A stretch of 64,000 nucleotides of DNA from an uncultured Actinomycetes bacterium (GTDB lineage: Bacteria > Actinomycetota > Acidimicrobiia > IMCC26256 > DASPTH01): NCBI GenBank assembly GCA_963782705.1, contig CAWAKX010000033.1, positions 160,196 to 224,195 of the forward strand, given 5' to 3'. Both the position numbers and the translations under genes were made by a program. The notes under the pieces were generated by a model. The model was not told the origin of the DNA and did not search any database. It was given only the letters and a program-made list of their open reading frames with translations. Position 1 is the stretch's first letter; the number at the start of each line of letters is the position of its first letter. Below are positions 40,364 through 46,260 of this stretch, piece after piece.

Positions 40364-40564
40364 ATGGCCTGGAAGGTCGAGGTCGACTGGGACCTCTGCG
40401 AGAGCAACGCGATCTGTATGGGCATCGCCCCCGAGGTCTTCGAGCTCCGGGACGACAACTACCTCTACATCCTTCAGGACAACCCGCCGGACGAATTGCG
40501 CGAGCGCTGCGAGCAGGCCGTGCGGCAGTGCCCGAAGCAGGCCGTCAGCATCACCGAGAGCTGA
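40364..40564 (+). CDS. small ferredoxin (66 aa, 3Fe-4S/4Fe-4S single-cluster type)
   Basis: RBS GAGAGGGGAG. MAWKVEVDWDLCESNAICMGIAPEVFELRDDNYLYILQDNPPDELRERCEQAVRQCPKQAVSITES has the Cys pattern Cx5C...CP. Confidence 0.85.
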   Translation: MAWKVEVDWDLCESNAICMGIAPEVFELRDDNYLYILQDNPPDELRERCEQAVRQCPKQAVSITES

Positions 40565-40688: not shown

Positions 40689-41814
40689 ATGACCGCCCCC
40701 CGCGTCGAAGCTCGTCGCCTGCGCCGCCGCCGCCGTCGGCTCGCGGTCGGCCTCGGGCTCGCGGTCGTGGTGTTCGCCTTCGGGTTCGGCGCGGCGGCCA
40801 TCGCGCTGTTCGGCAGCGGTGACGGCAGTGCGTCGTCGGGCCCGCCGCGCGTCACCTCGGTGGTCGAGGCGTCGACCACCACGGCCGCGCCGCCGACGAC
40901 CGGCTCCGCCGACCACCACGCTCGCGCCGGGCACGCTGACGGCCATCGACACCGAGCGGCGGTACGCGGTGGGGACCCGCTCGGCCACCTACGTCGACGG
41001 GTCACGCTCCACGTCGGCCAACGGCGACTTCGCCGGCGCGGCCAACCGCACCATCCCGGTGGAGTTCTGGTATCCCGCCACCGGCGCCGCGGGCGGCGAC
41101 AGCACCGCCGACGCGCCGCCCGACCGGGCCCACGGGCCCTACCCGCTGATCCTGTTCTCGCACGGCTACGCGGTCACCCCCGACTTCTACCGTCCGCTGC
41201 TCGAACGCTGGGCCGCGGCCGGCTACGTGGTGGCCGCGCCGGTGTACCCCATCCTCAGCGGCACGCCCGGCGGCGCCAGCCACACCGACTACGAGAAGAC
41301 CTTCGACGACGCCCGGTTCGTGATCTCCCAGGTGCTCGCGCTGCCCGGGAACGATCCGCTCGGCGGGCTGGTCGACGGCACGCGGATCGCCGCGGCCGGG
41401 CATTCCGACGGTGAGGTCGTCGCGTTCGGCGAGGGGCTGCTCCAGTGCTGTCGCGACGACCGGGTGCGGTCGGTCATCGCGATGGCGGGCGACCTGTCGA
41501 ACGCCAACAACCCGCACGTGCGCAACTCCGGGGTGCCGATCCTCCACGTGATGGAGACCGAGGACGAGTACGACCCCTACCAGCACTCCATCGACTGGGA
41601 CCGGGCGAACCTCGACGCGCCGCGGTGGATGCTCTCACTGCTCGGCGCGAGCCACGTGCCGCCCTACACCCAGCCGGGCAACGCGGCCTTCGAACTGGTG
41701 AGCGCGACGACGATCGCGTTCTTCGACGGCACGCTGAAGGGTCATCCCGAGCGACTCGACGCGATCGCGGCCACCGTCGACTCGTCGAACGGCGTGGCCT
41801 CGCTCGAGCGTTAG
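40689..41814 (+). CDS. membrane-anchored alpha/beta hydrolase (lipase / PAF-acetylhydrolase-like), one frameshift near 40910
   Basis: N-terminal TM LAVGLGLAVVVFAFGFGAAAIALFG; ...YPLILFSHGYAVTPDFYRPLLERWAAAGYVVAAPVYP...; the nucleophile elbow is AAGHSDG. Confidence 0.7.
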
Positions 41815-41863
41815 CGCCCGAGCGATGGCGCGAGCGCGTCGCAGAGCGACGCCGCGGGTGGCG

Positions 41864-43325
41864 TCAGGCGTCGCGTTCGGGGTACTTGGCGAGGAGGTCG
41901 TCGCGCACCTGGCGGCGCAGCACCTTGCCCGTGGCGGTCTGCGGCAGCTCGTCGGTGATCTCGATGATCTCCGGCACCTTGAGCGAGCCGATGCGGGCCT
42001 TCACCCACTCCTGCACGTGCTCGAGGTCGATCTCCTCCACGCCGGGGCGCAGGGTGATCGTCGCGGCGACGATCTCGCCCCACTCCTCGTCGGGCAGGCC
42101 GACGACCGCCGCGGTGGAGATGGCGTCGTGCTGGAGCAGCGCGTCCTCCACCTCGGCGGGGCCGATGTTCTCGCCGCCGCGGATGATGGTGTCGTCGGCG
42201 CGGCCCTCGCAGAAGAGGTAGCCCTCGATGTCGAGCCAGCCGCGGTCGCCGGTGTGCAGCCAGCCGTCGGCGTCGACCTTGGAGTCGGTGCCCACGTAGG
42301 CGCCGCTCACCTGGTCGCCGCGGATGAGGATCTCGCCGGGCACGTCGGCCTCGAGCGGGTTGCCGTGCTCGTCGGCGATGCGGATCTCGATGCCGGGCAC
42401 CGGGCGGCCGACCGACTCGAGCCGGTTCTTGAACAGCGGCTCGTCGCTGTAGAGGCCGAGGCGGTGGTCGTCGGGGCCGAGGAGCGCGACGGTGCTGCTC
42501 GTCTCGGTGAGGCCGTACGCGTTCACGAAGTCGGTCTCGGGCATCAGGTGCAGCGCGCGTTCGAGCACCGAGCGGTGCATGCGCGCGCCGCCGTACGCGA
42601 GGTTGCGCAGCGTGGGGACGCGCAGTTCGGGGTCGGCCTCCATCACCTGCACGATGCGGGCCAGCATGGTGGGGACGACGGTGGCGTGGGTGACGCCCTC
42701 GTCGCGCACGGTGCGGATCCAGTCCTCGGCGGTGAAGCGCGGCAGCGGCACGATGCGCCGCCCGACGTAGGTGGAGCTGATGATGGCGGCCACGCCCGCG
42801 ATGTGGAAGGGCGGCACCGACACGATGGCGGCTTCGTCGTCGCCGGCCGAGCCGAACTCCAGCGTGTTGAACACGTAGCTGAGGAGCTGGTCGTGGCGGA
42901 GCAGCGCGGCCTTGGGCGCGGCCGACGTGCCGCTGGTGAACAGCAGCACCGCGGGGCGCTCGGGCGCGGGGTCGAAGTCGCCGACGGCGTCGGACTCCGG
43001 GTCGAGCCAGTGCGAGCCGGCGACCACGACGGGCTCGAGGCGCGTCGAGCAGCTCCTGCACCTGGTCGTCGGGGAGACGGAAGTTGATCGGCGCGTAGCT
43101 CACGCCCGCCCACGCGGCGCCGAAGAGCGACGCGGGCACCAGCGGCGACAGCGGCTCCATGAGCGCGAGGGTGTCGACGTGGGCGTGCTCCTCACCGACC
43201 CGCACGGCGATGGCGCGCGCGGCACGGCGGAGCTGCTCGTAGGTGAGTCCGTCGGCGCGGGTGCCGACGGCGAGGCGGTCCCCGAGGGCGTCGGCCGCCA
43301 TCTCGAGGATCATCGCGATGTTCAC
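41864..43325 (-). CDS. acyl-CoA synthetase (AMP-binding, FadD-like), one frameshift near 43030
   Basis: N-terminus VNIAMILEMAADALGDRLAVGTRADGLTYEQL...; AMP motif LLFTSGTSAAPKAALLRHDQ; ...YGLTETSS...; TGDRGWLDIEGYLFCEGRADDTIIRGGENIGPAEVE; GKVLRRQVR. Confidence 0.8.
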
Positions 43326-43381
43326 TGGTTCCCCCCGATCGGCGGGTGCGCACCGCGGCGTGCAGCCGCGGACGTCGACGG

Positions 43382-43525
43382 TCAGTCGGAGGACGGCAGC
43401 GGCTTCGCCGCCGCGAGCTCCATCGGCGTGTCGTGGCAGGTGAGGGTGCCGTCGCCGGCCTTGGTCACCAGGACGGTGGCCTCGCACTCGCTGCACGTGT
43501 AGCGCTTGCCCATCTGGTTGGCCAT
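43382..43525 (-). CDS. small Cys-knuckle protein (47 aa), paralog B
   Basis: MANQMGKRYTCSECEATVLVTKAGDGTLTCHDTPMELAAAKPLPSSD*. The SD GAGGGG lies 7 nt upstream, inside the 3' end of paralog A. Confidence 0.45.
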   Translation of the reverse strand: MANQMGKRYTCSECEATVLVTKAGDGTLTCHDTPMELAAAKPLPSSD

Positions 43526-43529
43526 GACG

Positions 43530-43652
43530 TCACCCCTCGCGAGCAGCCATGGGCTGCTCGCAACACGACACCTCGCCGTCGGTGCCCTTCACCACGATGA
43601 TTTCGGTCTCGCACTTCTCACAGCGCAAGCGGGTTCCAGCTGCAGTCGGCAT
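43530..43652 (-). CDS. small Cys-knuckle protein (40 aa), paralog A
   Basis: MPTAAGTRLRCEKCETEIIVVKGTDGEVSCCEQPMAAREG*. Its stop is 4 nt from the paralog B start. Confidence 0.45.
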   Translation of the reverse strand: MPTAAGTRLRCEKCETEIIVVKGTDGEVSCCEQPMAAREG

Positions 43653-43733
43653 GGGCCGCAGACTACCCAACACCCCCGCCTCGCCGACCATCCGCACGCC
43701 CTGCGGCCGAGGTGGTCGGTTAGCGTGCGCCGG

Positions 43734-44586
43734 ATGGGAGCAGGGAACGACCCCGCGCCGGTCGTCGTCGACCACGACGGCCTGCGGATCGCCGCGCTCG
43801 ACTGGGGCGGCGACGGCCCGCCGCTGCTGCTCCTGCACCCCAACGGATTCTGCGCCGGGCTGTTCGATCCCCTGGCCCGTCGGCTCCGGGACGACCTACC
43901 GGGTGGTGGCGGTCGACCTGCGGGGCCACGGGGCGAGTGACGCCCCCACCCGGGTGGAGCAGTGCGGCTACCGCGACGTCGCCGCCGACGCCCTGGCCGT
44001 GCTCGACGCCCTCGGGCTCGACGACGTCCTCGTCGTGGGCGAGTCGCTCGGGGGGTCGGCCGCGATCCTCCTCGACGAGCTGCGCCCGGGTCTCGTGCGG
44101 CATGCGCTGCTGTGCGAGGCGATCGCCTTCCCCTCGCTCGGCGGGGGGCGGGGGAACGAGCGGGCCGACGGCGCCCGGCGCCGCCGGGTGGTGTGGCCGA
44201 GTCGCGACGCGGTGTTGGAGTCGTACGGCGCGCGTCCGCCGCTCGACGTGCTGGAGCACGCGGCCCTCGCCGGCTACGTGCACCGCGGATTTCGCGACCG
44301 GCCCGACGGTCACGTCGAGCTGGCGTGCCCGCCCGAGGTGGAGGCCTGGTTCTTCGAGGGCGGCGCCGATGGCGACGGCCCGCAGCTCACGCTGGCGCAC
44401 CTCGGGTCGCTGCACGCCGGGGCCACGATCGTGCGGGGCGAGGACACCGACCTGCCGTCGTTCTTCTTCGCCGCGCAGGCCGAGGCGTTGGGCACCGAGG
44501 CGCTGGTCGTGCCCGGCGGCCACTTCTTCCTGCAGCAGAGCACCGACCTCGCCGAGGACCTCGTCCGCACCCACCTCCCCGCCTGA
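43734..44586 (+). CDS. alpha/beta hydrolase fold-1 protein, one frameshift near 43890
   Basis: MGAGNDPAPVVVDHDGLRIAALDWGGDGPPLLLLHPNGFCAGLFDPLA... shifts to ...YRVVAVDLRGHGASD...LVVGESLGGSAAILL... Confidence 0.75.
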
Positions 44587-44628
44587 CCGACCGCCTCCGG
44601 GATATCCGACGCCGGTTCGTGGAGGGGG

Positions 44629-46260
44629 TCAGTCGAGCAGGGTGCGGGTGGTGGGGTAGTCGACCTTGCCGATGGTGGTGCGGGGGACGGCGTCGACGAT
44701 GCGCACCCGGCGCGGCCGCTTGTAGTGCGCGAGGCGAGTGGCGACCCACGCCGCGAGGTCGTCGGCGGTCGGCGCGGGCACGTCGGCGACGGTGCCGTCG
44801 CGCGTGAGGGCGACGACCGCGGCGACGATCTCGCCCCACTCGTCGTCGGGGAGGCCGACGACCGCGGCGTCGGCGACCGCGGGGTGGGCCTTGAGCGTCT
44901 CCTCCACCTCTTCGGGCCACACCTTCTCGCCGCCGGTGTTGATGCAGTGCCCGCCGCGACCGAGGAACACCAGCGTGCCGTCGGCGTCGAGGCGGGCCTG
45001 GTCGCCGAGGATCACGTAGCGGTCACCGTCGATCACCCGGAAGCTCGCGGCGTTGCGCTCGGGATCGCGGTAGTAGCCCTCGGAGATCGAGTCGCGCACC
45101 GCGAGCATGCCGGTGGTGGGCGAGCCGGGCGCGAGGTCGCGCCCGTCGTCGTCGAGCAGGCGCGCGTTGGGGCCGAGGCGGAAGCGCGCGGTGGCCGACG
45201 TTCCCGGTTCACGTGTCGAGGCCGACGCGAAGCCCGTGCCCTCGCTGCCGCCGAGCACGTCGTAGAACTCCATGGTGCCGCGCGCGAGGAGCGCGTCCTT
45301 CGTCGCCGCGCTCACCATCGCGCCCGAGTTGTGGATGCGGCGCAACGACGAGAGGTCGTAGGGCTCGCCGCGCGCCTCGGCCTCCTCGAGCGCGCGCACC
45401 ACCCGACGCAGCACCGTGTCGCCCACCACCTGCAGCACCATCGGTCGTTCACGCTGGATCGTCGCGCACACCACGTGACCGTCGAGGTGCCCGCGTTCGA
45501 GCAGCACGACGGTGCCGCCGGTGTTGCACGCGGTGTTGGCCTGGTACACCGCGCTCGCGTGCACGAGCGGGGTGGTCACGAGCGGGCGGGCCACGTCGCC
45601 CTCGGCGCGCCGGCGCGCGGTGTCGGCCACCAGCGCGGGCAGGGAGTCGGGCGGGATGGCGCCCCGGATCCCGTAGGTGGCCCGCACGCCGTGACGCAGC
45701 AGCGTGCCCTGCTTCCACATCGCGCCCTTGGGGAGACCGGTGGTGCCGCCGGTGTACCAGAGCACCAGGTCGTCGCCCGAGCGCTCGATGCGCGCCGCGG
45801 GGTCGTGGGCGCGCAGGAGCGTCTCGTAGTCGAGCGCGTCGGGGAGCGGATCGACGCCGGTCCCGTCGTCGATGTCGACGAAGGCGCGCACCGTGGTGAG
45901 GCGCGCCCGGGCCGACGCGACGTTCGGCGCGAGCTGCCGGTGGGAGATCACGACCTCGGCGTCCGCGTTGTCGAGCAGGTAGGCGAGCTCGTCGCCGAGG
46001 TAGCGGAAGTTCACGTTCACCGGGACCGCGCGCAGCTTCGAGCACGCGAAGAGTCCCTCGAGGTACTCCGCGGCGTTGAACTGGTGCAGCGCGACGTGCG
46101 TCCCGGCTCCGACCCCGAGCCCGGCGAGCGCGGCGGCGAGACGCGACGAGCGTTCGTCGAACGCCTGCCAGGTGTGGACCCGGTCGCCCTGCACCACGAC
46201 GGGAGCGTCGGGCATGGCGTCGGCCATGAGCTCCCAGACCGTGGCGAACGACTCGTACAC
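44629..46260 (-). CDS. acyl-CoA synthetase (AMP-binding), intact
   Basis: 543 aa with YTGGTTGLPKGAMW, ...GTLVFLGRGGHCINTGGEKVWPEEVEE..., GKVDY. Confidence 0.9.
   Translation of the reverse strand: MYESFATVWELMADAMPDAPVVVQGDRVHTWQAFDERSSRLAAALAGLGVGAGTHVALHQFNAAEYLEGLFACSKLRAVPVNVNFRYLGDELAYLLDNADAEVVISHRQLAPNVASARARLTTVRAFVDIDDGTGVDPLPDALDYETLLRAHDPAARIERSGDDLVLWYTGGTTGLPKGAMWKQGTLLRHGVRATYGIRGAIPPDSLPALVADTARRRAEGDVARPLVTTPLVHASAVYQANTACNTGGTVVLLERGHLDGHVVCATIQRERPMVLQVVGDTVLRRVVRALEEAEARGEPYDLSSLRRIHNSGAMVSAATKDALLARGTMEFYDVLGGSEGTGFASASTREPGTSATARFRLGPNARLLDDDGRDLAPGSPTTGMLAVRDSISEGYYRDPERNAASFRVIDGDRYVILGDQARLDADGTLVFLGRGGHCINTGGEKVWPEEVEETLKAHPAVADAAVVGLPDDEWGEIVAAVVALTRDGTVADVPAPTADDLAAWVATRLAHYKRPRRVRIVDAVPRTTIGKVDYPTTRTLLD

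Follow-up and report, generated by a model that had tools for sequence, protein, structure and literature searches.

Two short tandem genes, here termed A and B, lie on the minus strand of a 64,000-nucleotide stretch of an uncultured acidimicrobiial genome (contig CAWAKX010000033.1, positions 160,196 to 224,195; hereafter the window); they encode small proteins of the desulforedoxin (Dx) fold and stand upstream of a gene for a FadD-like acyl-CoA ligase. Both are real genes of a recognizable family and fold: their tandem arrangement is conserved, their products occur as natural fusions, B ends in an invariant C-terminal tail, and gene order links the pair to one clade of ligases. We propose, with middling confidence and from sequence comparisons, that the two proteins would form a heterodimer (A·B) that uses the tail of B to assist the co-transcribed ligase as its accessory partner.

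A conserved tandem of short genes

Gene A (43652..43530, minus strand) encodes a tail-less protein of 40 amino acids (aa), MPTAAGTRLRCEKCETEIIVVKGTDGEVSCCEQPMAAREG, with the site C11-x2-C14-x15-C30-C31. Gene B (43525..43382, minus strand) encodes one of 47 aa, MANQMGKRYTCSECEATVLVTKAGDGTLTCHDTPMELAAAKPLPSSD, with the site C11-x2-C14-x15-C30-H31 and an invariant C-terminal end, KPLPSSD, specified by the codons at 43405-43385 of the same strand. A first-pass annotation made from the sequence alone had located both open reading frames (ORFs), and translation reproduced their places, their peptides and the 4 nt between them. That spacer, which had been given as gacg, reads cgtc and separates the TGA stop of A (43532-43530, minus strand) from the ATG of B. 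The GAGGGG Shine-Dalgarno-like sequence described for B within the end of A is present as well (43538-43533, minus strand, 7 nt before the B ATG, as read from the sequence). The window has a G+C content of 72%, and G+C at third codon positions is 0.76 in A and 0.98 in B.

To place the pair, we built a profile from A and B. It matched 245 proteins, nearly all of them 47-aa B-type proteins of Acidimicrobiia metagenomes, a few of which their sources label 'desulfoferrodoxin-like iron-binding protein'. A scan of species-representative genomes, one genome per species, yielded 367 related loci, and those fetched comprise Acidimicrobiia metagenome-assembled genomes (MAGs) together with more divergent copies from Dehalococcoidia/Chloroflexota. 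Six-frame inspection found a tail-less A-type ORF directly 5' of B in 66 of 68 Acidimicrobiia-type loci, and a second Dx-like ORF is found upstream in all 12 Dehalococcoidia-type loci; the tandem is retained in 78 of the 80 fetched loci, the other two being truncated at a contig end. Nucleotide diversity at codon position 3 of both genes is double the value for positions 1 and 2; the ratio of nonsynonymous to synonymous polymorphism (pN/pS) stands at 0.38 in A (from 52 sequences) and 0.35 in B (from 83). With the Pfam scores given below, the related loci, the retained tandem and these ratios bear out the earlier supposition that the two ORFs are real, and their paralogy has likewise been upheld.

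The conservation extends along both proteins. Each of the four Cys residues of A is at least 97% conserved among the Acidimicrobiia copies. The last ligand pair of B is C-H in 79 of 85 loci, C-C occurring only in the Dehalococcoidia type. The B alignment has a mean column identity of 85% and the consensus MANQMGKRYTCxxCEATVLVTKAGDGELxCHGQxMExAQAKPLPSSD, in which the final P-L-P-S-x-D is invariant; across 46 sequences the residues N3, G6, K7, R8, Y9, C11, C14, P42, L43, P44, S45 and D47 do not vary. The distance from the A stop to the B start is most frequently +4 nt (23 loci), with -1 and +1 in 8 loci each, a pattern that points to translational coupling of A and B. Two proteins, P0024 and P0043, are chimeras with an A-like N-terminus, a B-like tail and C-Q as the last ligand pair, which suggests recombination between the paralogues.

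The statement that both genes are unannotated holds for A, which is almost never called, and fails for B, which has been called hundreds of times. Contigs with an identical B carry a called 55-aa ORF antisense to A (L172:5810-5977 and L174:668-835, corresponding to about 43530-43700 on the plus strand of the window). Automatic gene callers systematically miss A and call an opposite-strand ORF instead, and in this way a conserved and apparently leaderless (see below) 40-aa gene escapes them.

Both proteins belong to the desulforedoxin domain family

Although the first-pass annotation could assign no named family, both peptides exceed the 23-bit gathering cutoff of Pfam PF06397 (A, 23.6 bits, E 4e-5; B, 24.3 bits, E 2e-5). 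This entry, 'Desulfoferrodoxin, N-terminal domain' (Desulfoferrod_N), is the desulforedoxin domain. The earlier recognition of C-x-x-C followed by C-C or C-H as a rubredoxin-class metal knuckle was thus correct in kind. A has the ligand set C-x2-C-x15-C-C (C11, C14, C30, C31), with the spacing of desulforedoxin itself, whereas B departs from it with C-x2-C-x15-C-H. The only solved structures matched in sequence were the desulfoferrodoxin N-domain (2ji2, E 0.008) and desulforedoxin (1cfw/1dxg, E 0.04). One family member superimposes on desulforedoxin 1cfw over 36 of 36 residues at 1.0 Å, and the features of the PF06397 fold, about 36 residues with beta-hairpin knuckles, are all present.

The NCBIfam models desulf_FeS4 and dfx_rbo gave weak matches below their cutoffs. 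For TIGR00320 dfx_rbo the scores were 19-22 bits against a cutoff of 146.9, with the N-domain region alone aligned rather than the full length, and A and B are therefore not superoxide reductases. Nor are they rubredoxins proper, which have two C-x-x-C knuckles: here the second pair is an adjacent C-C or C-H, and no rubredoxin Pfam entry was matched.

Each of the desulforedoxin PDB entries holds two chains (6 entries, 12 chains). In the family at hand the domains are not identical chains, as in a homodimer, but the products of two different genes or the non-identical halves of a two-domain chain, from which we infer a hetero- or pseudo-dimer of A- and B-type domains. A structural model of the natural A-B fusion P0001 has two beta-hairpin domains in a compact unit (predicted local distance difference test, pLDDT, 80; predicted TM-score, pTM, 0.69), with the linker and the tail at low confidence. 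The model of a fused protein from Gordonia (pLDDT 94.5, pTM 0.83) consists of two repeated three-strand units, and the tail is its least ordered portion.

A large fused branch keeps the tail and loses the cysteines

An exhaustive profile search of 1.84 billion representatives returned 970 matches at E<1e-3, with 160 at E<1e-10. Many representatives are 80-120-aa fusions of two Dx-like domains in the order of A-B, tail-less and then tailed, and in P0001 and P0002 A itself is fused in frame to B. A branch of ~101-103-aa proteins, with at least 7,991 members scored, has lost most of its Cys residues. Counting those of the tail-less plus the tailed domain in 113 proteins, the commonest states are 2+1 (51 proteins), 2+0 (31), 1+1 (12) and 1+0 (11). 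This fused branch retains the GKRY motif, the ...LVTK.G.G.L... strand and the AKPLP(S/A)SD end. Among 145 representatives from the profile search, the C-terminus is LPSSD in 71 and LPASD, LPSAD, IPSSD, IPGSD or LPSGD in others. The terminal Asp is nearly invariant and follows small residues (SSD, ASD, SAD, GSD, SGD), and it is kept together with LP-x-x-D across phyla even where all Cys residues are gone.

The fused branch is found in cultured Gordonia and Dietzia, on Rhodococcus plasmids (including pDK3 of strain DK17), and in Mycobacterium branderi, Streptomyces, Sphingomonas, Sphingobium and one Myxococcota MAG, always under the label 'hypothetical protein'. It has no NCBIfam model, and its Pfam matches are sub-threshold. 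Against PF06397, the Cys-rich fused relatives reach 42.7-46.3 bits with two domains each, the Cys-poor relatives P0273 and P0216 stay below threshold at 15.3-18 bits, and the N-extended single-domain proteins P0154 and P0213 fall just under it at 21.5-22.7 bits. These last belong to a sub-branch (P0154, P0173, P0182, P0188, P0196, P0209, P0213, P0215 and P0251) with one tailed Dx-like domain, the second being replaced by an unrelated conserved N-terminal domain of ~60 aa. None of the best 150 representatives has a Dx-like domain fused to an enzyme; the long matches P0245 and P0255 were set aside as candidates for such fusions, as they look like frameshift or junk read-throughs.

A search of the literature on desulforedoxin-like proteins, the LPSSD tail and accessory proteins of adenylate-forming enzymes found no description of the family, and there are no curated models for it beyond the generic Dx domain. 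The family is very abundant and spans at least four phyla, its members being entered as no more than hypothetical proteins or under the wrong name 'desulfoferrodoxin', and it occurs in the cultured and genetically tractable Gordonia, Rhodococcus, Dietzia, Streptomyces and Sphingomonas. It offers a clean natural case of a metal-knuckle fold whose shape and role outlast the loss of the metal ligands, and probably of a homodimeric fold converted to a heterodimer or a fused pseudo-dimer.

Gene order links the pair to one clade of acyl-CoA ligases

Downstream of B, after 56 nt, the third cistron encodes a FadD-like acyl-CoA ligase of the class I adenylate-forming type (43325..41864, minus strand; GTG start at 43325), whose orthologues have the Pfam domains AMP-binding and AMP-binding_C. 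The first-pass annotation had its place and strand right, while the continuous frame implied there is broken by a 1-nt insertion near 43046. The tie between the pair and this ligase, also proposed there, is the best supported of the contextual links, both by gene-order counts and by the orthology of the ligases concerned. Among 62 evaluable Acidimicrobiia-type loci, the ligase gene is directly downstream in 31, follows one intervening gene in 17 and lies further off in 1 (49/62). The intervening gene of the 17 loci is enoyl-CoA-hydratase-like. In class-2 loci (L023, L026, L040, L045 and others) the gene between B and the ligase encodes ~340 aa, including an N-terminal extension of ~150 aa, and a divergent paralogue of it stands upstream of A-B. 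Other recurrent neighbours are genes for an APH-type kinase, an SCP-x-type thiolase, a family-III CoA-transferase, a 4HBT thioesterase, short-chain dehydrogenases/reductases (SDRs) and a P450.

The fused branch shows the same association. Of 52 evaluable metagenomic loci, 38 have the ligase gene as the immediate same-strand neighbour, mostly at 7-40 nt, and 41 have it within 3.5 kb. In annotated genomes, as seen in Gordonia, Dietzia, Rhodococcus DK17 pDK3, Sphingomonas and Myxococcota, the cassette comprises one or more CaiB/BaiF proteins, the small protein, a class I adenylate-forming enzyme, a crotonase and an SDR, and in many cases an acyl-CoA dehydrogenase and a TetR regulator as well. The ligases adjacent to the small protein are 43-52% identical to one another across Acidimicrobiia, Mycobacteriales, Myxococcota and Sphingomonas, as against 25-28% identity to the other FadD of the window; thus, they constitute a single orthologous clade whose members accompany the small protein. 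As acyl-CoA ligases they are generic and match no specific NCBIfam equivalog.

CaiB/BaiF racemase homologues stand beside the fused small protein at L085:8299-9390 and L170:7353-9542, and the one next to the small gene in Gordonia is a close homologue of the alpha-methylacyl-CoA racemase of M. tuberculosis (1X74, E 1e-143), which suggests that the cassette degrades 2-methyl-branched acyl-CoAs. Rhodococcus DK17 has two CaiB/BaiF genes in tandem and an fdxA ferredoxin gene directly 5' of the ligase.

The Dehalococcoidia pairs keep different company: luciferase-like and HpaB-type flavin monooxygenases, an F420-dependent oxidoreductase, a thioredoxin-like protein, a Zn-dependent alcohol dehydrogenase, an acyl-CoA-dehydrogenase-like protein and a thiolase/ChsH2-type pair. 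These pairs (L076-L084) often have C-C in both copies and may represent an ancestral, redox-type context.

Expression signals and the start of A

A TANNNT hexamer begins 12-15 nt 5' of the A start codon in 68 of 82 loci, and at -13 or -12 in 65 of those 68, which take in nearly all the loci of the Acidimicrobiia type. The bases around it vary, and its forms include TATCCT, TAGTCT and TAGGAT. In the window it reads TAGTCT (43665..43660, minus strand), 7 nt 5' of the A ATG. The TANNNT -10 motif of M. tuberculosis has its centre 7-12 bp 5' of the transcription start site, and leaderless mRNAs are common in that species (PMC3898074). The position of the hexamer relative to A, read with this mycobacterial spacing, suggests a leaderless transcript beginning at the start codon of A. 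The Dehalococcoidia copies have a GGAG-type Shine-Dalgarno in place of this geometry. A longer in-frame ORF for A (43530..43838) and an upstream in-frame ATG at 43694 were discarded as its start because the upstream region is unconserved as protein, has stops in many loci and holds the -10 box.

A scan for sigma-70 consensus promoters and terminators gave no match, and an Rfam scan of 41500-45000 found no RNA family. Within the 81-nt region between A and the divergent hydrolase gene there is a further conserved motif, cgACTGGCCgac (cgGATGGTCggc in the window), at ~43683-43695 on the minus strand; in the class-1 loci L001-L042 it lies at about -43..-32 from the A ATG, and it could be a -35-like element or the operator of a regulator. 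The first-pass annotation had missed the three most telling features: the invariant C-terminal tail of B, the naturally occurring fusions of A and B, and the promoter geometry of leaderless type.

A candidate partner of the ligase, and the competing explanations

We picture A, B and the ligase as the first, second and third cistrons of one operon, probably expressed from a leaderless transcript. A and B would each fold as a single desulforedoxin-type beta-knuckle, and translational coupling would supply them in equal amounts, most likely yielding an A·B heterodimer; that the two domains come as separate or fused chains, that their translation is coupled and that the fold is a dimeric one all argue for this. 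In most other lineages the heterodimer would have become a single fused chain, that is, a pseudo-dimer. The metal sites, Cys4 in A and Cys3His in B, would bind Fe or Zn in a chiefly structural capacity, since the family tolerates the loss of ligands, though they are constrained in the lineage of the window. The heterodimer would then be a small partner dedicated to the class I adenylate-forming enzyme encoded with it, whose operons probably break down CoA-thioesters of lipids or 2-methyl-branched acids. B would contribute the flexible invariant tail, ...KPLPSSD-COOH, as the part that engages this partner: LP-x-x-D is kept across phyla even where all Cys are lost, and the model is least ordered in the tail. 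Binding might activate or stabilize the ligase, as MbtH-like proteins do with the adenylation domains of nonribosomal peptide synthetases (NRPSs), or it might gate the active site. The cross-phylum link to one ligase clade points to an unrecognized accessory component of fatty- and branched-acid activation, which, if the model is right, would be the first MbtH-like helper of stand-alone acyl-CoA ligases or the bearer of a stranger tail-based mechanism.

Several observations weigh against this model. The ligase gene is absent from 13 of the 62 evaluable Acidimicrobiia-type loci and was near the pair in none of 11 Dehalococcoidia-type loci (none within ~5 kb). The ligases look catalytically complete, with the TGK lysine motif kept, and their sequence demands no helper. 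In Mycobacteriales the small gene is as close to the alpha-methylacyl-CoA racemase gene as it is to the ligase gene, and a different enzyme of the cassette could thus be the actual partner. Finally, the strong constraint on the Cys ligands in the lineage of the window makes a redox role conceivable there.

The foremost competitor, though we consider it unlikely, is a rubredoxin-type electron carrier, in which A·B would have an Fe(Cys)4 and an Fe(Cys)3His centre and pass electrons to a nearby oxygenase, desaturase or dehydrogenase (a P450, a flavin monooxygenase or an acyl-CoA dehydrogenase), the tail docking the redox partner. Desulforedoxin and the desulfoferrodoxin N-domain, the very families matched by A and B, are Fe(Cys)4 redox centres; this kinship, the near-complete conservation of the Cys ligands in the Acidimicrobiia copies of A, the recurrence of ferredoxin and P450 genes nearby, and the Cys4+Cys4 Dehalococcoidia copies among HpaB-type, luciferase-like and F420 oxidoreductases and a thioredoxin-like gene all speak for it. 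However, the largest branch has lost the ligands and yet retains the fold, the tail and the ligase cassette, from which it follows that electron transfer is not the function conserved across the family. Moreover, the operon in the window (A, B and the ligase) includes no obligate redox enzyme. The redox or metal-chaperone role offered in the first-pass annotation likewise fails as the conserved function of a family most of whose members lack most or all of the Cys residues.

An improbable alternative makes the tail itself the substrate: the C-terminal carboxylate of B would be adenylated by the adenylate-forming enzyme, or an acyl group would be loaded onto the tail, and B would serve as a covalent carrier or a modifier. 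The near-invariant terminal Asp, set after small residues on a disordered tail, would suit this, as would the tight coupling of the gene to that of an adenylating enzyme. There is also a precedent in LysW, a zinc-ribbon carrier protein that acts via its conserved C-terminal tail. Nevertheless, the neighbours are ordinary enzymes of CoA-thioesters (crotonase, SDR, acyl-CoA dehydrogenase, MCR racemase) that need no protein carrier, the ligases bear all the hallmarks of normal acyl-CoA ligases, A and B have no LysW or ubiquitin-like match in NCBIfam or Pfam, and we know of no ANL enzyme that adenylates a protein C-terminus. Were this reading true, the pair and its ~101-aa fused relatives in Mycobacteriales, Streptomyces and sphingomonads would make up a hitherto unrecognized system of protein carriers or modifiers in the bacterial catabolism of lipids and branched acids, comparable to LysW or to ubiquitin-like activation of a C-terminus (of the ThiS, MoaD or Pup type) but dependent on an ANL enzyme. 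Two further roles were considered and rejected: completion in trans of a crippled CoA-transferase by the tail Asp (the catalytic His/Asp motif regions of the Gordonia CaiB/BaiF protein are conserved), and an intermolecular zinc clasp that would join the two residual Cys of a fused protein to the ligase (no Cys is conserved in the ligase clade).

Very improbable is a regulatory role, either for A and B as zinc-ribbon regulators or for A as a leaderless, Cys-containing upstream ORF that attenuates expression of the ligase. Leaderless polycysteine short ORFs that act as attenuators exist in mycobacteria, and A is a leaderless-type first cistron with a Cys-Cys pair. Against this stand the full-length conservation of the amino-acid sequence and the confident fold, the fusion of the domains in other lineages, where the gene lies mid-operon between ligase and racemase, the lack of a DNA-binding domain in A and B, the TetR regulators that the cassettes already possess, and the absence of an Rfam element from 41500-45000. 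Lastly, the suggestion that short, Cys-containing tandem peptides beside an ATP-dependent enzyme might be duplicated precursors of ribosomally synthesized and post-translationally modified peptides, processed by the neighbouring enzymes, is scarcely credible, as the peptides are conserved over their whole length (at the mean column identity given above) with no variable core, form a structured domain and have no YcaO, radical-SAM, lanthipeptide, protease or export genes in the contexts inspected.

Other neighbours and sequence quality of the window

On the other side of A, an alpha/beta-hydrolase gene (43734..44586, plus strand; ATG at 43734, stop at 44586) is divergently oriented and shares with A the 81-nt promoter region; its orthologues have Abhydrolase_1/6 domains, and its position is conserved in the class-1 loci. 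It does flank the pair, as first described, albeit on the opposite strand and with a 1-base insertion near 43892. Beyond it, a second, paralogous acyl-CoA synthetase (44629..46260, minus strand) lies outside the partner clade; at 530 bits it nearly reaches the 543-bit cutoff of the NCBIfam subfamily NF005863. In class-1 loci this synthetase is conserved 5' of the hydrolase, along with an ABC transporter pair, and in the window too an ABC transporter lies upstream. Convergent with the ligase is a gene for a chlorophyllase/PAF-AH-like lipase-type hydrolase (40819..41814, plus strand; PF07224, PF03403), a conserved neighbour, and a small single-cluster ferredoxin (40364..40564, plus strand; Fer4_15/Fer4_13) is a conserved neighbour in the class-1 loci.

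Over 8.8 kb, the window shares 95.4% identity with contig L172, whose A and B genes are identical to those of the window. Relative to L172 the window has 1-base insertions at ~43046 in the ligase, at ~43892 in the hydrolase and within other genes; further single-base indels occur at ~46951 and at many sites between 37300 and 40900. The genes that are frameshifted in the window are intact in L172, where the ligase has 481 aa, and the frameshifts are most likely assembly errors or very recent lesions. The indel pattern suggests an error-prone, perhaps long-read, assembly or a decaying locus; it leaves A and B unaffected.

Comparison with known systems

The closest known relative is desulforedoxin from Desulfovibrio gigas (1DXG/1CFW), which belongs to the same domain family, has the same fold and functions as a unit of two domains. 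However, desulforedoxin is a homodimer of identical Cys4 chains, whereas A and B are two different chains (Cys4 and Cys3His) or, when fused, one chain. In further contrast to desulforedoxin, the A/B family has the invariant C-terminal tail KPLPSSD (in B) and the GKRY motif, and most of its members lack the cysteines. The hosts differ as well, being anaerobic sulfate reducers for desulforedoxin and Acidimicrobiia, Mycobacteriales, sphingomonads and others for the A/B family, which resides in acyl-CoA catabolic operons. The N-terminal domain of desulfoferrodoxin, the 2Fe superoxide reductase (1DFX, 2JI1), has the same knuckle and is the best sequence match among solved structures. Unlike desulfoferrodoxin, the A/B family nowhere has the superoxide-reductase catalytic domain; given this and the dfx_rbo scores far under cutoff, the source label 'desulfoferrodoxin' is an over-call.

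Three other systems are comparable in role or in kind. MbtH-like proteins offer an analogy of role only: each is a tiny protein encoded beside, and co-evolving with, an adenylating enzyme of the ANL superfamily. There is no kinship in sequence or fold (no Pfam match to MbtH, PF03621, at E up to 10), and the partner of MbtH is an NRPS, while the candidate partner of A/B, as judged from gene order, is a stand-alone acyl-CoA ligase. The analogy with LysW is again one of role, LysW being a small zinc-ribbon-type globule whose conserved, flexible, acidic C-terminal tail is the functional element. No homology to LysW was detected in NCBIfam or Pfam, its ligase is an ATP-grasp rather than an ANL enzyme, and no ATP-grasp or LysW-pathway gene occurs in the inspected contexts of the A/B loci. 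Finally, the ChsH2/DUF35 proteins, small rubredoxin-like zinc ribbons of the Cys4 kind that are structural partners of CoA-ester enzymes in thiolase complexes, are comparable to A/B, and a ChsH2-type gene is present in Dehalococcoidia neighbourhoods of the pair. They differ from A/B in combining PF12172 with an OB fold, in having C-x-x-C ... C-x-x-C ligands and in lacking a tail.

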